The notes under the pieces were generated by a model. It saw only the letters and a list, made by a program, of their open reading frames with translations. It had not been told where the DNA came from and searched no databases. The position numbers and the translations under genes are program-made. From IMG/VR virus record IMGVR_UViG_2711768062_000003, positions 1 through 40,741 of that record: 40,741 nt of DNA, one strand, 5' to 3'. The DNA is from a virus. Taxonomy: Duplodnaviria; Heunggongvirae; Uroviricota; Caudoviricetes. Of the stretch, positions 2,835-20,230 are shown in pieces; within the stretch, counting starts at the first letter, position 1, and each line of letters starts with the position of its first letter.

Positions 2835-5800
2835 TTATGCCTGAGTACGCAGCGCTTCAAGGCGGCGCAGGTCGAAGTCGTTCAGTTCGTCGGTGTAGTC
2901 AGCAGTGATTGGCGCTGGCCATTCACCTGTGTCGAATCCGGTTGCGATATTGCGCATCGCTTTGCGGTACTCGAGCATACCCAGCTCCAGTAGTTCAGCG
3001 GATGCCTCGATGATGGCGATCCAGTGGTAGTTCTCGTCTTTGTTGACGAAAATCCAGAAGAACTGATCCAGCGCTGCGGTTTCGCAGTACATAGCCGCGC
3101 TCAGGTGATAATCACGTTCAATAATTTCCCGGTGTAGCCTGGCGCGCAGGCTTTCCTGCTTAACATTCCACATGCTGATGGTTTTCAGGTCTGCACCTAT
3201 ACGCACGCCATCCAGGTCGATCTCAAGGTCAGGGCGCACACGAACTTCCAAGCCCGTCTCCTCGTCAAAACCAAAGTAGCTCACCTCAACGGCTCGGCTA
3301 GGGTGGGTCAGCAGCATGCCGGCGGTCGGGTGTGCCAGAAGCGCTTTTTGAATATTCAGCGCGGTGCTCAGCTGCTGGCGGGTGACCAGCACTTTTCCTT
3401 CCGGGTTATCGCGCCAGGCATCCAGCAGTTCGTCGGCAAATACGGCATCTGGTTTGACTGCCTTCACGGCCTGGATCATGTCTGCTTTGGTACCGGACAC
3501 TTTCAGTGGTGCCGGTTTCTGTGCTTCCTGAGCCACAAGGTCAGGGTTGATGATTGCCAACTGCTCCAGCAGCGCGTCACGGCTGCCGCTGGTTTTAACC
3601 GGCGGCGGCAGGGTGGCGTTGTACTCTTTAATGCATGCCTTCATTGCCGTCGCCGTCTGCTTCTGGTCACCATCAATACGCTGGAAGTCAGCTGGCAGCG
3701 CCATATAGTTCTGTGCCGTTTCTTCCAGGTTAGCGCCAAGCGGAACCTGCGGCGGCAGGGTGGCGTTGTACTCTTCCAGTAACACCTTGATGTCGTCGGC
3801 AGACAGCAGCGCCGGCAGGCTGGCATTGTGCTCATCGATAAAGGCGCGCAGGGTCGCGGCCGTTGTGAATGCGCCTTCAGGGATCACCGGTTCAACGCTG
3901 AATTCTGCGTCCAGTAGTTCAGGCTGCAACGCCAGCGCATGCACCAAGTTGCCCATGTCCAGCACCGCTGAGCGCTCTTTGACGATGGTTTTCTCTACGT
4001 GGCGCGCATTGAAGTACATCAGCGAAACGCGCGCATCTTTCACCTGGGTTGAGCTGATGCCGTTGGCGGCGTGGTAAACCTCGTTTGGCAGCCCTTCATA
4101 GCGGCCTGGCTCGAAATAAGCGGGATAAACAACAGCTGGTTCGTCAGATTGCGCTTCTGGCTCGGTTTGTGCTGCAACTGGTTCGGTTTGGCTTACAGAA
4201 TCGCTATTTTTGGCGACAGAATCCGTATTCTGGTTTACATCGTCCTTCTGGCTGGTATCTGACTCTTCACCAGACTCCAGACTGCTTTCGCCTGGCTGTA
4301 CTTCATCACCAACATTTTTTTCATCACTGACAGTTTCTTGAACCTGCACATTGCTGGTGGTTTCCGTAGCCTGTTTCGTGCCATGAGTTGCTGAGTTCTG
4401 CAGTAAAGCCGTAACATCGAATATTCCGTTGCCGACATTTTTAACCAGTTCTTGTTCGGCTTTATGTGGTTGTGCTGTCGCTTCCTCTGCGCGGCGGCGT
4501 GCTTCTTCTTCACGTACGCGTTGCAGGTTCTCTTCGTGAGTGCAGAAGGATTTGCGCGGAGACTCCTTACCTTCAGGTTGGGGAATTTCCTGTGCTGCGG
4601 GTTCAGCCTCATGCAACGGCAATAACTCGACCGCGGAATTGAACGCGGCTGTCATGGTCTGGTTAACAAATTCCAGGTGAGCGACAGGAGTTAAATGAAT
4701 ATTTTCCGGTGCGATACGTACCAGGTTAAAAATAGCCGTGCGGTTAACACCCAGAACGCCTGGCTGATTGCGCAGGATGTTGCTCCATGATTTCCATGGT
4801 TCTTCTTTTTTGGTCACGATTTCTTTAGCGCGACGAAGAATGCTGCCCGGGATCTCGAAGTGGTTGAAGTCCATAGGCAGAAGGGCACATGCAATCTCTA
4901 AATCGAGAGTGTCAAGGGTATGGTATGTATCAGGTCCACGGTCAGTGACGTAACCGCCGTTGGCATTGGTTCCGGAATCAGTACGCTGCACACTACTGAT
5001 GCGATTACCGGCGGCCCATTCGCGAACGAGGATACCGCGGTCGATGTGATCTGTAGCGAACCACAATTTCAAAAACTGGATTAAGGTTGCGAGTTCAGGG
5101 ATTTTTCCATCGACAGGGAAGACTTTCTTAACGGCATTCACGACTTTATGAATATCGTGCTCAATGGCTTTTTTGAATGCTTCCACATTCTCAGCTGCCA
5201 GCAGCAGGTTCTGGACGTACGCGTCATCGGTGTCCATCTCAAGGCGGACAATCTCATTTTTCTGCCCTGCGTCGATGTGATAGAGATATTCACCATCACC
5301 GATGAACTGAGCCAGTACGCGCTGGCGGAATGGCAGGGTGGCAACAACGATCAGGTTCGGTTGCTGTGTCTGCTGGGATTGCTCTTCGGTATCGACTTCA
5401 CCATCAACGACGCCACCTTCTGCCCGGCCGTTCTCGTCGGTCTGGATACCGTCCTCAACAGTGAGATCTTGACCAGTTGTAACGTCAGCAGCGTTGCTGG
5501 TTTCAGTTTTGAGCAACTGCAACTTACCACTGCGCCAGTCTTCTACCAGTTGATTGCGGTCACCGGCATCGGTGTTCACCCAGTCAGACATGAATGCAGC
5601 GATCAATCTTGGTTCGTGCTCTTCGTCTGGTGTGAAAATGTCCTTAACCGCCCGAATCATTTTCCACTCAGCATTCAGGCTGAGTTTGGCGGTCGCGGGC
5701 ACATCGTTCCTTGCCACAAGCAGGCTATGGAGATATGTATTGCCTTCATCCAGTGACATTTCGCTGGCAGCCAACTGCTGCTCTTTAGTGACGTGGGTTT

Positions 5801-14624: not shown

Positions 14625-14761
14625 CATCAGAACTGATTGAGGTAATCCGCATGCGCTGGACACGCCTCCGCATTTATCGCCGCCCGGGTTCGGTGCTGGT
14701 GGACTACCGCATTCTTCGCAATTTTATTCGCATTAACCAGTTGGCAGGAGCTGCTGCATGA
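14621..14761 (+). CDS. Possible 46-aa translationally coupled ORF between rusA and Q
   Basis: ATG overlaps rusA stop and its TGA overlaps Q start (ATGA junctions at both ends); basic, no homology known to me. Confidence 0.25.
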
Positions 14762-15588
14762 ACCTCGAAAACACCGTGAAATACCACTTCGCCAAATCGA
14801 CGCTGATTAGCGACTCTCCGCGCGCTACGGCCTCCGACTCGCTGACCGGAACGGACATCATGGCAGCCATGGGCATGACCCAGGAACGCGCCGCCATGGG
14901 CTACAGTGCCTTTCTCGGAAAGATGGGCATCAGCAACAACGATCGGGAGAGAGCGATCGAGCTGCTGGCCCAGTATGCGCTGACAAAATGCGATAGCGTG
15001 GCTGCCCTGCGCAAACTGGACGCTGGGGTTAAACCGCTGGTGATGCGCCAGCTTGCTACCTTCGCTTTTGAGGACTATTCCCGCAGCGCCGCCAGCGTCA
15101 AGAGGTGCGAATGTTGCGCAGGGCAGGGGTTCATTGAGGCTGACGTTTTTAGTATGAAAACCAGCATCTCTGGCTGCGCAAAAGACATCATTCAAAAATC
15201 AAAAAAATGGGGGCTGAAGGTTATCCCTTCGCAGCATCAGAATCGGCGTGAGGTGAAAGAGGTGGCCCGGGTGCTGTGCTCGGCCTGCAAAGGGAAGACG
15301 GTCGTCAGCTGCGCATGTAATGACTGCCAGGGGCGCGGAAAAGCTGTCAGCAAGACGCTGACAGAAAAGCAGGGCGCGCCGGTGATGGCCGACTGCAAGC
15401 GCTGCGGCGGGCGCGGGTATGAGCGGATCCCCTCGACTGAGGCATATGCGGCTGTTTGCCTTATTACCGACGCCATTACTCTGGACACCTGGAAAAAGTC
15501 AGTGAAGCCGTTTTACGACCGGCTGATCACCAAATTCGACATGGAAGAAGCGTGGGCCGAATCGCAACTGCGAGCAATAACTCGATAA
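14758..15588 (+). CDS. Late-gene antiterminator (Q-like, Cys-rich Zn-finger type)
   Basis: 276-aa ORF located immediately upstream of the late promoter region and lysis cassette; multiple CxxC pairs (CECCAGQG, CSACKGK, CNDCQGRG, CKRCGGRG). Confidence 0.6.
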   Translation: MNLENTVKYHFAKSTLISDSPRATASDSLTGTDIMAAMGMTQERAAMGYSAFLGKMGISNNDRERAIELLAQYALTKCDSVAALRKLDAGVKPLVMRQLATFAFEDYSRSAASVKRCECCAGQGFIEADVFSMKTSISGCAKDIIQKSKKWGLKVIPSQHQNRREVKEVARVLCSACKGKTVVSCACNDCQGRGKAVSKTLTEKQGAPVMADCKRCGGRGYERIPSTEAYAAVCLITDAITLDTWKKSVKPFYDRLITKFDMEEAWAESQLRAITR

Positions 15589-16096: not shown

Positions 16097-16312
16097 ATGT
16101 TACGCATGGAAAAACTAACCACTGGCATCGCCTATGGTGCATCAGCGACTAACGCTGGTTACTGGAGCCTGCAGTTGCTTGACCAGGTGTCACCATCGCA
16201 GTGGGCAGCCATTGGTGTGCTTGGCAGCCTGGTGTTCGGGCTGCTGACGTATCTGACAAACCTGTATTTCAAAATCAAAGAGGACCGGCGCAAAGCCGCC
16301 AGGGGGGAATAG
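16097..16312 (+). CDS. Class II holin (phage 21 S21-type pinholin) with dual start motif
   Basis: 71 aa; strongly resembles S21 (TGIAYG ... AGYW ... [18 protein letters not shown] ... [11 protein letters not shown] ... [10 protein letters not shown]); N-terminal MLRMEK gives two Met starts. Confidence 0.85.
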
Positions 16313-16848
16313 TGGCTGACAGATCAAAGCTTAGCGCTGCGGTATTAGGTCTTATCCTCGCCGGTGCGTCAGCGCCCGTTATTCTCGATCAGTTCCTGAA
16401 TGAGAAGGAAGGCAACAGCCTGATTGCTTATCAGGACGGTGGCGGCGTCTGGACTATTTGCCGCGGCGCCACGCTGGTAGATGGTAAACCAGTTCGCCAG
16501 GGCATGAAGCTGACGCAGGCCAAATGTGACCAGGTGAATGCCGTTGAGCGAAATAAAGCGCTGGCCTGGGTTGAACGCAATATCAGGGTGCCGCTGACCG
16601 AACCGCAAAAGGCCGGAATAGCTTCTTTCTGCCCGTATAACATCGGGCCCGGTAAGTGCTTCCCCTCGACGTTCTATAAGCGCATCAATGCCGGTGACCG
16701 TAAAGGGGCATGCGAAGCGATCCGCTGGTGGATAAAAGATGGCGGCCGGGATTGCCGGCTAACCAAGGGGCAGAAGAACGGATGCTTCGGTCAGGTGGAA
16801 CGCCGCGACCAAGAAAGCGCGTTGGCATGCTGGGGGCTCGATAAATGA
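16312..16848 (+). CDS. SAR endolysin (lysozyme-like with N-terminal signal-anchor-release domain)
   Basis: GTG start overlapping holin stop; hydrophobic N-terminus LSAAVLGLILAGASAPVIL then E-x8-D-x5-T region (EGNSLIAYQDGGGVWTICRG) as in phage 21 / P1 Lyz endolysins. Confidence 0.85.
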   Translation: MADRSKLSAAVLGLILAGASAPVILDQFLNEKEGNSLIAYQDGGGVWTICRGATLVDGKPVRQGMKLTQAKCDQVNAVERNKALAWVERNIRVPLTEPQKAGIASFCPYNIGPGKCFPSTFYKRINAGDRKGACEAIRWWIKDGGRDCRLTKGQKNGCFGQVERRDQESALACWGLDK

Positions 16849-17237
16849 AAGCTCGTCACATCATTGCGATTGCCATATTCCTCCTTTGCCTGTTCGGCGG
16901 GGCGTGCTGGTCGGCATGGTATTACAGCGACAAAGCCAGTAGCGAAAAGGAGCGGGCCGATAGCGCAGAACAGCAGGCTGAGACCGCGAATGCTGTCACC
17001 GCGAACGTGATTCGGGCCGTGAGTATCATCAACGCCATTTCAGAGGCGAACCAGAATGCAAAGAACAAGATCGCACTGGAGTCACAGAGAGCCCAGGCAG
17101 ATATCAAAGTGGCTGTTGCGGATGATGATTGCGCTCGTCGGCCTGTGCCTGCTGCAGCTGCTAACCGGCTGCGGGAATACGCGGACAGTTTACGTGCAGG
17201 CGCCGGTGGTGCCCCTGCCGGCGAACCTGACAGCTGA
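16845..17237 (+). CDS. Rz-like inner-membrane spanin (i-spanin)
   Basis: 130 aa; N-terminal TM helix (IIAIAIFLLCLFGGACWSAWYY) then coiled-coil-like periplasmic domain; ATGA overlap with endolysin. Confidence 0.75.
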   Translation: MKARHIIAIAIFLLCLFGGACWSAWYYSDKASSEKERADSAEQQAETANAVTANVIRAVSIINAISEANQNAKNKIALESQRAQADIKVAVADDDCARRPVPAAAANRLREYADSLRAGAGGAPAGEPDS

Positions 17238-17385
17238 AACACCACAGCCTGCCATTCCCGAGCCGCTGACCTACGGGGACAGTCTGGATCTGAATGTCAG
17301 TCTGCTATCGGCGCTGGGGCAATGCAATCGGGATAAGGCTGATATATGGAAGGTTGAGCTTTCACGCACATCTCATTTTAAATAA
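17122..17385 (+). CDS. Rz1-like outer-membrane lipoprotein spanin (o-spanin), begins inside Rz in the +1 frame and extends beyond it
   Basis: MMIALVGLCLLQLLTGCG: signal peptide with lipobox LTGC; Pro-rich mature part. Confidence 0.7.
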   Translation: MMIALVGLCLLQLLTGCGNTRTVYVQAPVVPLPANLTAETPQPAIPEPLTYGDSLDLNVSLLSALGQCNRDKADIWKVELSRTSHFK

Positions 17386-17566
17386 CAATATTTGCGAAAG
17401 TTACCCGTTTCGCTATCATAAAAAATGTTAACCCACGGAAAGTTCAAGGAGGTCTTTTTGACCCAGTTTTTGGACTTCCCCTTAAGCAACCGTTGATCGT
17501 GACGTCAGGGTTCCTGAGCCAGGGGTAACAGAAATCGAGAGGATAGTGCGAAGGGAGAATTCCGAG

Positions 17567-17749
17567 ATGGATGACCATCTTGAGATTTTTACCACCCGCG
17601 TCTGGGACGTTGGAGTCTCCCGCCTTTCAGGTCACGCTGTTGGGTCAATTCATGAAAAGCCAAGGGGCTCAGGTGACGCTGCTTGGTTTGGCCCCGAAAT
17701 GTCCGTCGCGTCATTAGGGATAACTGAACCTTGTAGTAATTCGCATTAG
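17567..17749 (+). CDS. Possible small ORF (60 aa) in a promoter-to-terminator unit; could instead be a non-coding RNA
   Basis: ATG with AAGGGAGAA SD; candidate promoter TTGCGA-16-TATCAT at 17391-17424; strong terminator about 20 nt after stop. Confidence 0.25.
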   Translation: MDDHLEIFTTRVWDVGVSRLSGHAVGSIHEKPRGSGDAAWFGPEMSVASLGITEPCSNSH

Positions 17750-17767
17750 CTTGGCCTTCCTTTCACC

Positions 17768-17793
17768 TACAAACCGCCTACGGGCGGTTTTTT
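17768..17793 (+). terminator. Rho-independent terminator
   Basis: AAACCGCC-tac-GGGCGG followed by TTTTTT. Confidence 0.7.
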
Positions 17794-17884
17794 AGTGTCA
17801 ACGCTATGGACAAACTCATCTTTATGGCTACATCCCCCGGAGGGGATGCGTAAAAGGCTTAAGAAAAATGATTTTGAAAAATGC

Positions 17885-18145
17885 TTATTGTGCTCTGCCT
17901 AGTAGAGCAGCGACTCTCTCGTTTAATTTTTCTAGGTATCCATCTTTAGCGGGAATGTCGAATTCGATGGGGTCGGCCTTAGAAACCCCTTCTAAATAAA
18001 CATCTCCGAGGTGAGTTTCTTTCCCCACAACTCCGTTTAAAGCCGTTGATAATACAGCAATAGCAACACGAGAAGCGTGGCTGTGTAACTGTAACTCTTC
18101 AACCAAATCCTCAAGATGGGCAATTCTTTTTTCTACATCTGACAT
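17885..18145 (-). CDS. Hypothetical protein (AT-rich moron, antisense to late genes)
   Basis: 86-aa ORF; AAGGAA SD 7 nt upstream of ATG; AT-rich; between lysis cassette and terminase. Confidence 0.6.
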   Translation of the reverse strand: MSDVEKRIAHLEDLVEELQLHSHASRVAIAVLSTALNGVVGKETHLGDVYLEGVSKADPIEFDIPAKDGYLEKLNERVAALLGRAQ

Positions 18146-18281: not shown

Positions 18282-18989
18282 ATGGCAAAACCGGACTGGG
18301 GAAGCCTCCAAAGACGGTTCCTCGCCGAGCATGCCAAAACAGGTATATCGCCGAAAGAATGGTGCGAAGCGCAGGGACTGAATTATACATCTGCGCGCAG
18401 GTACATCAAAAAGCCTGCTGCGCAAAAAACTGCGCAAAAGGATGTGCGCAAAACTGCGCAAAGCCAGATGCCGCATGTAGTAGTGGTTGAAGCCTCTACG
18501 CCAGTTGAGGGCGATACTGCGCAGGAAAACGCAGGCATCCTTAAACCACAGCATGAGCAGTTTGCGCAGAACATCGCGCGGGGCATGCCGCAGAAAGAGG
18601 CGGCGATATGCGCGGGCTATTCGCCTTCACGCGCTGATTCCCAGGCATCGATACTTTTCAAACGCCCGGATGTGCGCAGGCGCATCAGAGAGCTGCGTCA
18701 GGATGCCGCTCTGCTCGTATCATTCGACGCGAAAGACCTGGCTGAACTCTCCTACAAATCGGCGAAAGCCGCGCTGGACGCTGAGAAGTTTGGGCAGGTA
18801 GCCCCGAACATCAAAAACGCCGCGCAGCTCACCGGCATCGACATGAGCAACAAAACGGAAGTGAATGTCGATCTGGCTGGCCTGAGTTACGGAAAGGTCT
18901 GCATCGTCACGCCGTCGAACTGCCCGCCTGAAGCGTGGGCAGCGCACATGGATAAGCTGCGCGAGGGAAAGCAGACAGCCCAACAATAA
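18282..18989 (+). CDS. Terminase small subunit
   Basis: 235 aa; motif [23 protein letters not shown] ... [18 protein letters not shown] characteristic of small terminase HTH domain; directly upstream of the large subunit. Confidence 0.7.
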
Positions 18990-19024: not shown

Positions 19025-20230
19025 GTGCTCGGGACGCTGTACGACGCACCGATAGGCTCTGTCCGCTGGCGCTGGACGTATGGCGGTCGTGGTGGCGGCA
19101 AATCGGTAGAGATTGCCCGCGCGCTGGTATTGTTGGGCGCTATCGAGCCAATGATCATCCTGTGCGCTCGTGAGTTCCAGAACTCTATCAACGATTCGGT
19201 ACTGGCACTGCTGGACGCTGAAATCCACTCGCTTGGCCTGGCGCACTTCTACAAGGTCAAGAACAACGAGATAGAGGGCAGCAACGGCACGCGGTTTACC
19301 TTCAAAGGTCTGCGCAACAACATCCAGAGCATTAAGTCGATGCACGGCATCAAAATATGCTGGGTAGAGGAAGCGCAAACCGTATCGCAGGATAGCTGGG
19401 ACATCCTCGGTCCGACCGTTCGCGCCAATAAATCCGAAGTGTGGGTGTCGTTCAACCCGCGCGAAGCTACCGACCCGACCTACGCCATGATGGAGCGGCA
19501 CCGCGCCGATCCCCCTGATGGCGGAGCGATTATTACCTGCGTCAACTACTGCGATAACGCATTCTTCCCTGACGTGCTCAGGCACGAGATGGAATACTGC
19601 AAGCGTATCGACTTCGAGGCTTACGAGCATATCTGGCTGGGGCTGCCGAAGGCGCTCAGTGAGGCCGTTATCTTCTCCGGCAAGTACCGGGTTGAGGCAT
19701 TCTCTGACGACCTGTGGAAAGAAGCCGATCGCCTGTTTTATGGGGCTGACTTCGGTTTCGCCAACGACCCATCCACTCTGGTCCGTTGCTTCATTATCGG
19801 CACCCGATTGTACATCGAGTACGAAGCCTACGGCGTCGGCGTCGAGCTGGACGAAATGGCGCAGTTCTATGACTCCATCCCGGAATCCAGAAAATGGCCC
19901 ATTCACGGCGACTGCAGCCGGCCGGAGACCATCAGTTATCTTTCGCGTCAGGGCTTCATCATCGACGGCGCTACCAAATGGCCGGGGAGCGTTGAGGACG
20001 GCATTACCTACCTGAAAGGGTTCGAAGAAATCATCATCCATGAGCGCTGTAAGCACATGGTCGATGAGGCGCGCCTTTACTCCTACAAAACCGACCGCAT
20101 GACCGGCGAAGTGCTGCCGGTTGTCGTGGATAAGCATAACCACCTGTGGGATGCCGTGCGCTACTCGCTGGATGGATACATCACAAGCGTTGGCGATCTC
20201 GGTGTCTGGGCCGCCCTGGGCAAACAATAA
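19025..20230 (+). CDS. Terminase large subunit (ATPase/nuclease)
   Basis: 401-aa ORF (GTG start); Walker A-like GGRGGGKS and ATPase/nuclease architecture; follows small subunit. Confidence 0.85.

Follow-up and report, generated by a model that had tools for sequence, protein, structure and literature searches.

A candidate family of ~370-nt pseudoknotted RNAs encoded by lambdoid temperate phages of Enterobacteriaceae

We analyzed a 40,741-nucleotide (nt) stretch of viral DNA from a lambdoid prophage (IMG/VR record IMGVR_UViG_2711768062_000003, positions 1 to 40,741; hereafter the window), concentrating on the interval that directly follows its lysis gene Rz1. We consider it likely that positions 17392–17793 are an autonomous gene whose product is a highly structured, ~368-nt non-coding RNA of an undescribed family in lambdoid temperate phages of Enterobacteriaceae. 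Coordinates are window positions unless a locus is named, and the RNA gene lies on the plus strand.

The unit was judged real because it is conserved across homologues, rather than on the strength of its promoter score or single-sequence fold. A sigma-70-type promoter (TTGCGA-16-TATCAT, 9 of 12 consensus matches) begins 6 nt past the Rz1 stop at 17385; by itself this match does not exceed chance, 4 kb having yielded 2 promoter-like sites where 2.8 were expected, and the single-sequence folding z-score of the window RNA is only -1.87. Nevertheless, both promoter hexamers recur with constant placement in each of the 34 family members amid otherwise unconserved sequence, and the element TTGnnn-16/17(18)-TAnnAT ends 5–8 nt ahead of the first conserved base in all 34 homologues. 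In alignments the conserved block starts at UGUUAACCC, the predicted start of the RNA, and ends at the terminator, everything upstream being unrelated except TTG and TAnnAT; nhmmer matches to the RNA are full length in all homologues. The terminator hairpin, which begins 21 nt past the stop of a 60-codon open reading frame (ORF), is retained in all but two subgroups of the family. Conservation bounded in this way by promoter and terminator is the pattern expected of an independently transcribed RNA gene.

A preliminary description of this DNA, drawn from the letters alone, had proposed such a self-contained transcription unit, and its physical layout was borne out. The promoter it placed just after Rz1 is present at 17392–17419, the stretch it put at about 140 nt ahead of the ORF measures ~141 nt from the predicted start at ~17426, the 60-codon ORF runs from ATG at 17567 to TAG at 17747–17749 with AGGGAG upstream, and the strong terminator expected about 20 nt past the stop lies at 17771–17790. 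Homologues keep the promoter and, bar two subgroups, the terminator. Conservation in related prophages, a test named beforehand, was also found: the unit persists beside lysis and packaging genes that are themselves unrelated.

Family members were collected by pattern scans of IMG/VR, of one genome per species and of metagenomes, followed by nhmmer. Subtype A, which includes the window RNA, comprises 26 distinct close relatives from Escherichia coli, Citrobacter portucalensis, Serratia and Pseudescherichia; fold and ORF statistics for this subtype refer to 22 sequences. Looser patterns yielded subtype B (loci L046, L101, L102, L106 and L107), through which we reached subtype C, found in Escherichia phages IdasGreatGrand and Turner, in Klebsiella phages Kp4856-1 and Kp4862-1 and in 159 of 5426 complete E. 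coli genomes. Seventeen complete E. coli genomes share a 415-bp block with 100% identity, and three more carry it at 78%; in strain 53, one of these three, the copy follows a wholly different lysis cassette with a GH108 endolysin. Altogether the family occurs in 20 + 159 = 179 of the 5426 genomes (~3%), in one copy each and never annotated. Besides E. coli it is found in Citrobacter, Serratia, Pseudescherichia and Klebsiella phage Kp4856-1; its carriers include the culture-collection strains NCTC11023, NCTC9966, NCTC9699 and FDAARGOS_497 and the isolated phages IdasGreatGrand, Turner and Kp4856-1.

The elements of the gene in the window, with P1 to P10 denoting helices, are as follows.

17392–17419, plus strand: sigma-70-type promoter from the promoter scan (-35 TTGCGA at 17392–17397, 16-nt spacer, -10 TATCAT at 17414–17419)
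17426–17793, plus strand: RNA gene, subtype A, ~368 nt from predicted start to terminator U-tract, both ends predicted
17426–17434, plus strand: 5′ strand of P1, UGUUAACCC, pairing with GGGGUAACA at 17522–17530 and closing the 5′ domain (minimum-free-energy fold and consensus)
17437–17480, plus strand: P2, a long hairpin with its apical module at 17446–17475 (AAGGAGGUCUUUUUGACCCAGUUUUUGGAC)
17446–17452, plus strand: AAGGAGG of the P2 apical module
17458–17460, plus strand: UUG of the P2 apical module
17458–17496, plus strand: 12-codon open frame from this UUG, stop TGA at 17494–17496
17485–17515, plus strand: P3, hairpin AGCAACCGUUGAUC...GUCAGGGUUCCU, with CUGA/UCAG changed to CUAA/UUAG in locus L007
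17513–17520, plus strand: 5′ strand of the pseudoknot, CCUGAGCC, pairing with 17666–17673
17537–17542, plus strand: 5′ strand of P4, GAGAGG, pairing with CCUUUC at 17759–17764 and closing the 3′ domain
17544–17548, plus strand: conserved junction UAGUG, following the P4 5′ strand
17553–17621, plus strand: P5, GGGAGA at 17553–17558 with UCUCCC at 17616–17621, enclosing P6 and P7
17563–17582, plus strand: P6, compensatory changes in 5 of 8 pairs
17567–17749, plus strand: 60-codon ORF (MDDHLEIF...SNSH), judged not to be a gene
~17592–17613, plus strand: P7, a hairpin inside P5
17622–17646, plus strand: P8, a hairpin with compensatory changes in 4 of 7 pairs
17643–17658, plus strand: conserved junction GGUCAAUUCAUGAAAA, preceding the P9 5′ strand
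17659–17664, plus strand: 5′ strand of P9, GCCAAG, pairing with CUUGGC at 17750–17755
17666–17673, plus strand: 3′ strand of the pseudoknot, GGCUCAGG, one base after the P9 5′ strand
17678–17740, plus strand: P10, a long hairpin variable in sequence and length; its helices 12 and 13 show compensatory changes in 14 of 15 pairs
17771–17793, plus strand: intrinsic terminator, 8-bp stem AAACCGCC-UACG-GGCGGUUU (17771–17790) and a T-run to 17793

Covariation strongly supports a multi-domain fold for this RNA. Read 5′ to 3′, with PK for the pseudoknot, the predicted architecture is P1(5′)-P2-P3-PK(5′)-P1(3′)-P4(5′)-P5[P6,P7]-P8-P9(5′)-PK(3′)-P10-P9(3′)-P4(3′)-terminator; that is, a 5′ domain in which P1 closes P2 and P3, and a 3′ domain in which P4 closes P5 to P10, joined by an 8-bp pseudoknot. 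Conserved single-stranded junctions, UAGUGNGAAG and GGUYAAUNCAYGAAAA, accompany the helices. With the 22 subtype-A sequences RNAalifold gave 94 pairs, 29 of them with compensatory double changes (14–15 in controls). In this nested model 96.6% of cells are paired, against 35–52% when partners are slid by 1–3 columns, and the covariation score is 0.251, against 0.03–0.07 in controls; in 500 shuffles such values never arose. Of 2059 paired cells, 325 (16%) are G.U, and the helices are 96.6% paired on the plus strand but 80.8% on the minus strand; the fold therefore exists on the plus strand only, the strand that bears the promoter and terminator. A scan match at 17563–17582 that resembled a terminator turned out to be helix P6, which covaries in 5 of 8 pairs.

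Part of the stronger evidence is the way in which paired strands are rewritten between subtypes. The two pseudoknot strands are the 8 nt before an invariant AGGGG and the 8 nt that lie one base after P9; because one strand is inside P1 and the other outside it, the pairing is a pseudoknot. Its sequence differs in every subtype, yet complementarity is complete at the same offsets: in 7 of 8 pairs both bases differ between subtypes, and pairing holds in 99.2% of cells (30 distinct rows). P1 behaves similarly (A-U to U-A, U-A to A-U, an A.G mismatch to C-G). Alignment across subtypes used fixed windows cut by sequence anchors, padded with N and realigned (146 columns, gapless, register held), because MAFFT shifted subtype B by 1–2 nt at the pseudoknot. 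For the five long-range helices (34 pairs; subtypes A, B and C; 30 distinct rows), 94.5% of cells are paired, compared with 33–57% after sliding, and 19 of 34 pairs show double changes, compared with 2–7 after sliding and 11.9 after shuffling. When RNAalifold was run on subtype B by itself it chose the pseudoknot helix over P1, which is an artefact of nested-only folding. The subtype versions of the long-range pairings are listed below.

Pseudoknot, subtype A: 5′ CCUGAGCC, 3′ GGCUCAGG
Pseudoknot, subtype B: 5′ GUCCGGYU, 3′ RGCCGGAC
Pseudoknot, subtype C: 5′ GUCUGACY, 3′ GGUCAGAC
Pseudoknot, subtype C2: 5′ GUCUGAUC, 3′ GAUCAGAU, fully complementary
P4: A GAAAGG/CCUUUC; B GAUUGG/CCAGUC; C GACUGG/UCAGUC
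P5: A GGGAGA/UCUCCC; B GAGGGU/GCUCUC; C GAAAGU/GCUUUC
P9: A GCCAAG/CUUGGC; B GCCUUG/CAAGGC; C ACCGAG/CUCGGU

We observed that the cassette occupies two kinds of position in phage genomes. Among loci with enough flanking sequence, lysis genes lie immediately upstream of subtype A in 24 of 27, and nin or Q genes lie downstream in none; the upstream endolysins belong to three unrelated families (phrog_7, phrog_315 and phrog_181) and the downstream terS genes to at least two. Subtypes B, C and C2 have NinB, NinG, RusA, DUF1367 or Q downstream in 50 of 50 such loci, none of which has lysis genes upstream; the FDAARGOS_497 copy, for example, sits in a DLP12-like nin region. The cassette is always co-oriented with rightward or late phage transcription, and in the window it coincides with a trough in G+C content (41–51%, compared with ~57% in the flanks). 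With its own predicted promoter and terminator, a site at a module junction, variable flanks and deviant G+C content, it has the hallmarks of a phage ‘moron’. Given the two junctions (post-spanin, and the nin region before Q), the constant co-orientation and the unrelated flanking genes, the cassette behaves as an RNA ‘moron’. Its surroundings in the window, within the late region of the prophage, are as follows.

14758–15588: Q-type antiterminator
16097–16312: holin
~16312–16848: endolysin
16845–17237: Rz
Ending at 17385: Rz1, followed by the RNA cassette
17885–18145, minus strand: 86-codon ORF, phrog_16546 match
18282–18989: terS
19025–20230: terL

Neighboring genes offered no constant partner. 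Pfam found no families in six ORFs downstream of the RNA, no downstream ORF is conserved across the contexts compared, and no reverse transcriptase ORF of the retron or DRT kind was found among the neighbors (by annotation, with PHROGs and Pfam for a subset). The 86-codon ORF of the window, which converges on the RNA terminator, shares the low-G+C island (41–45%), is present only in this prophage lineage and matches phrog_16546, where no function is assigned, and no Pfam family; a hairpin, CATCCCCCGGAGGGGATG, lies between it and the RNA at 17832–17850. In L003, L008, L013 and L024 a second conserved inverted repeat separates the RNA terminator from the terS start codon. It reads GCCATTACCATGGG-TAGC-CCCATCGTAATGGT in L003, has a weaker counterpart at ~17797–17830 of the window and shows compensatory changes (GGG/CCC to GAG/CTC in L008, TTAC/GTAA to TGAC/GTCA in L024); possible roles are those of a second terminator, a translational operator of terS or a DNA site.

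In some phages the neighborhood includes known RNAs. Rfam places isrK and C4 antisense RNAs directly 5′ of an antirepressor-like ORF that is followed by the new RNA (L109, IdasGreatGrand, 2532–2714; L046, 9730–9803; L114, 2253–2329), an arrangement that resembles an immI-like module; in IdasGreatGrand isrK and C4 lie ~0.8 kb upstream of the new RNA. IsrJ occurs elsewhere in two other phage contigs that carry the new RNA. Downstream ORFs in L110 (+388 to +939, subtype C) and L046 (+2895 to +3392, subtype B) have a common IIRLR(H/N)N(L/A)LH stretch that reads as an Rx4H, HEPN-like motif, with no Pfam match for either ORF; adjacency of such ORFs to the RNA is not general across the family.

Individual copies and searches add some detail to the family. 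The 78%-identical copy (L002, 4021–4378; strain 53 and two other genomes) has lost its terminator and P4 3′ strand, has mismatches in the otherwise invariant pseudoknot strands and shows a promoter of lower quality (TTACGA, TAACAT). This copy is probably decaying, and pseudoknot support from L002 by itself was set aside for its mismatches and decayed look. The E. coli subtype-C copies L111 (FDAARGOS_497, 5001–5349) and L112 (4001–4345) have no intrinsic terminator after P4, and unrelated small ORFs (118 and 93 amino acids) lie 15–35 nt past them; the Klebsiella subtype-C copy retains its terminator. In the IdasGreatGrand record (PP925829.1, L109) two hypothetical genes of 39–43 codons, CDS0041 (3424–3555) and CDS0040 (3605–3724), overlie the RNA and are probably spurious calls. 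The one-genome-per-species scan gave three true matches and one chance match in Acidimicrobiaceae, true matches being few because prophages are strain-specific; five metagenome matches to the RNA pattern and most matches of a two-block pattern scan were dismissed as chance. Blastn gave no match for subtype A in 50,697 phage records and none for subtype B in plasmids, and a megablast search of the flanks for an RNA-less version of the same prophage found these flanks only in the 17 genomes.

Several other readings of the locus were weighed against an autonomous RNA gene. It is unlikely that the RNA is a cis-acting leader, either riboswitch-like or a leader-peptide attenuator, that senses a signal and controls terminator read-through into downstream genes. 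Promoter, long structured RNA, intrinsic terminator and gene do form the classic layout of such an element, and the 5′ domain holds a mini-ORF with a strong Shine-Dalgarno (SD) sequence; terS starts 70–110 nt past the terminator in several subtype-A loci, and the terminator-less E. coli subtype-C copies run directly into an ORF. However, what lies downstream is unrelated from locus to locus (two terS families, small ORFs, NinB, DUF1367), with the next gene of the window on the opposite strand, and conservation ends at P4, ahead of the terminator. In 17 of 22 sequences there is no upstream complement of at least 5 nt to the terminator 5′ strand, and in the rest there are non-conserved complements of 5–6 nt. 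Unrelated downstream genes and the lack of a conserved anti-terminator thus argue against a riboswitch or attenuator.

The apical module of P2 consists of a 4-bp stem GGNC/GNCC that presents AAGGAGG, a UUG 5–9 nt downstream and then NAGUUUUUG; at 17446–17475 it is the most conserved part of the family and the only block kept in A, B and C, with the stem changing from GGUC/GACC to GGGC/GUCC in subtype C. An IMG/VR scan for this module returned at least 119 loci, and among the matches listed were RNAs of similar length (~390 nt) in Streptococcus temperate phages, whose likeness to the E. coli RNA is established for the ~25-nt module only. The Streptococcus unit has a TTGATT-17-TATAAT promoter, an ~390-nt RNA and a terminator, runs in the same direction as the repressor and integrase genes and lies within a ~750-nt unannotated gap between cro-like and cI-like genes; its 5′ end carries the AAAGGAGGAC-loop-GUCCGAGUUUUUG module as in the E. 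coli RNA. Examples are L203 (3001–3422, phage P9, NC_009819) and L204 (3601–4020, phiGBSVK-D), and L113, L115, L121, L124, L129, L133, L137, L157, L160 and L185 are of the same type. Rfam gave no match on these Streptococcus relatives.

A dual-function RNA or messenger for a micro-peptide of 11–19 amino acids (M[T/S][Q/E]FL...), started at UUG 17458 with the remainder of the transcript regulating or stabilizing it, is a reading to consider, and one that we hold to be improbable. The perfect SD sequence, its 5–9-nt spacing and the UUG are invariant in all subtypes and in the Streptococcus phage relatives, and the frame is open for 11–19 codons everywhere. However, the chance of 10 stop-free codons is ~0.6, and past codon 8 neither peptide sequence nor length is conserved. 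In codons 1–5 third positions are invariant and first positions vary (ACC/UCC, CAG/GAG/AAG), the reverse of a coding signature across such distant hosts, and the observed changes are explained by pairing (U-A to G-U in the GGNC/GNCC stem). This pattern implies a constraint on the RNA rather than on a peptide. In addition, ~300 nt of covarying structure far exceeds what a 3′ untranslated region (UTR) needs.

The invariant hairpin presenting AAGGAGG...UUG suggests contact between the RNA and the ribosome. The small (30S) ribosomal subunit would be the simplest partner, because a perfect SD module is common to such distant hosts, and we name it tentatively as our best guess for the partner, though one less likely than not.

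We are somewhat more doubtful still that the RNA is a base-pairing regulatory small RNA (sRNA) or sponge in the manner of IsrK, DicF, AgvB or AsxR, with a short seed that targets mRNAs of the host or the phage. Such a role would suit a prophage-borne gene with its own promoter, a Rho-independent terminator with a U-tail and conserved single-stranded stretches such as UAGUG and GGUYAAUNCAUGAAAA, but the RNA is set apart from seed-type sRNAs by its length (~370 nt), its ten covarying helices and its long-range pseudoknot, and no Rfam sRNA family matches. Recurrence of the hairpin module in Streptococcus phages also argues against an Hfq-seed mechanism; to our knowledge Streptococcus has no Hfq.

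That the 60-codon ORF (17567–17749) encodes a small protein, with the 140 nt upstream as its 5′ UTR, appears very improbable. It has an ATG with AGGGAG upstream, and 13 of 22 close homologues keep it whole, with a likeness among them over the first ~38 residues. Read in frame from the window's ATG, however, the start column holds ATG in 13 of 22 and GTG in 4 of 22 subtype-A sequences, and the frame is broken by an absent start, a stop or a frameshift in 9 of 22, all of which keep the RNA helices. Variable columns are distributed 16/12/15 over codon positions 1/2/3, with no third-position excess, and synonymous changes number 21 of 67 (31%, compared with 24% expected at random). An equivalent ORF is absent from subtypes B and C, and PGAP called no gene at the RNA in any of the 179 E. 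coli genomes, the 17 identical ones included. The supposed leader of ~140 nt is the conserved 5′ domain, the most conserved part of the RNA and more so than the ORF. By these measures the ORF is most simply an accident of the 3′ domain and not a gene. The leader-plus-ORF anatomy and the small-protein product of the preliminary description were thus not upheld, while its suggestion that the functional product might be an RNA is supported by a covarying fold that is kept where the ORF is broken; its label ‘sRNA’ does not fit, as this is a ~370-nt multi-helix pseudoknotted RNA and not a small base-pairing one.

Just as improbable is a DNA-level site (pac or cos, a recombination site or a protein-binding array): subtype A does lie just upstream of terminase genes, a frequent location of packaging sites, but the helices are strand-specific with 16% of paired cells G.U, compensatory changes keep pairing rather than sequence, promoter and terminator are conserved and co-oriented, subtypes B and C sit in the nin region far from packaging genes, and terminase families differ between loci.

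If the locus is an autonomous RNA gene, host sigma-70 RNA polymerase would transcribe it without phage factors, so that lysogens would contain the RNA and newly infected cells would produce it at once. It would then act in trans, as a folded molecule with a binding partner or with a catalytic or assembly activity, rather than as an antisense RNA or an mRNA. A further and speculative proposal is that it represents a new class of large pseudoknotted phage RNA with a biochemical activity of its own instead of a base-pairing regulator, possibly related to the RNAs of the Streptococcus lysis-lysogeny region by way of the SD-UUG hairpin that both contain. Such an activity might, for example, consist of docking on 30S and altering translation in lysogeny or early infection; alternatively, in conflicts of the phage with its host or with phage defence, the RNA might be a decoy, a sponge or a particle that assembles itself.

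Some points weigh against these interpretations. As a single sequence the window RNA has a folding z-score of only -1.87, and its start site, its 3′ end and its expression in lysogens are predicted. Shuffle controls overstate significance because the sequences are related; slid-partner controls and between-subtype rewrites are the stronger evidence. The E. coli subtype-C copies without a terminator adjoin a downstream ORF, which fits a 5′-leader role there. A frame of 11–19 codons is open in every subtype, and translation of a micro-ORF is possible; the idea of ribosome contact has sequence resemblance as its sole basis.

Few RNAs combine large size with a complex tertiary structure, and most of those studied are ribozymes, riboswitches or ribonucleoprotein scaffolds. 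No system in biology has been studied better than E. coli and its lambdoid phages; even so, the 179 complete E. coli genomes (of 5426) that carry the RNA leave it unannotated, it is missing from Rfam 15, and a deposited phage genome overlays it with ‘hypothetical protein’ calls. Movement of an RNA-only cargo between two classical moron sites implies that phage or lysogen gains a selectable function from it, with no protein partner encoded beside the RNA. The covariation model specifies precise mutants.

Comparisons with known RNA classes likewise point to novelty. At the gathering threshold Rfam 15 had no matches in the whole window (at E≤10 only terminator-like fragments) and none on the RNA of subtypes B and C, and ARAGORN found no tRNA or transfer-messenger RNA (tmRNA). 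Conserved 16–18-mers occur in no paper of the openly accessible full-text literature, and the topical literature returned only small prophage sRNAs, work on ROOL and GOLLD and unrelated reverse-transcriptase-associated RNAs, subscription-only papers being outside both searches. We therefore treat the RNA as a new, previously undescribed family. A ToxI-like type III toxin-antitoxin RNA was rejected, as the RNA has no tandem repeats and no conserved downstream ORF, and so, by eye, was a CsrB-like GGA sponge (~9 GGA in 368 nt, compared with ~6 expected, only one of them conserved). Subtypes B and C contain GGGGAUAAA, which resembles the type I-E CRISPR repeat of E. coli over one 9-mer; with a chance probability of ~0.03 and no counterpart in A, this likeness was put down to coincidence.

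Attenuators of the mgtA/mgtL and tnaC type are long leaders with a mini-ORF, and the new RNA likewise holds an SD sequence and a short ORF inside a long structured RNA that ends at a terminator; unlike them, it has no constant downstream gene and no anti-terminator pairing, and its structure is kept whatever follows. With tmRNA it shares length (~360 nt), a pseudoknot and a short internal open frame, but it lacks a tRNA-like domain and CCA end, and ARAGORN and Rfam are negative; the tmRNA frame is without an SD sequence and start codon, whereas the frame here has both.

The small RNAs known from prophages are ~50–100 nt long and act by base pairing. They include IsrK/C4, IsrJ, DicF, AgvB/AsxR, StxS and the Pas sRNAs (PMC4104026, PMC7547250, bioRxiv 10.64898/2026.05.13.724894). 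Like them, the new RNA is encoded in lambdoid prophages of E. coli/Salmonella type with its own promoter and intrinsic terminator; it differs in being 4–7 times longer, in having a pseudoknot along with ten covarying helices, and in giving no match to their models.

Other relevant RNAs are ROOL (~580 nt) and GOLLD (~800 nt). These are large ‘ornate’ bacterial RNAs found in prophages and studied by cryogenic electron microscopy (PMC12286853). The new RNA resembles them as a long multi-helix RNA with tertiary structure and conserved joining regions, encoded by a free-standing temperate-phage gene with no adjacent protein partner; it differs in its length of ~370 nt, its Enterobacteriaceae hosts and the lack of a sequence or structure match to their Rfam models.

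In its genomic behavior the cassette resembles the morons. These are autonomous promoter-gene-terminator cassettes inserted between conserved phage genes, such as lambda bor and lom, a concept introduced by Hendrix and colleagues. The RNA cassette similarly has its own promoter and terminator, interchangeable flanks and a lower G+C content than its neighbors; where the cargo of those morons is a protein, here it is a structured RNA.

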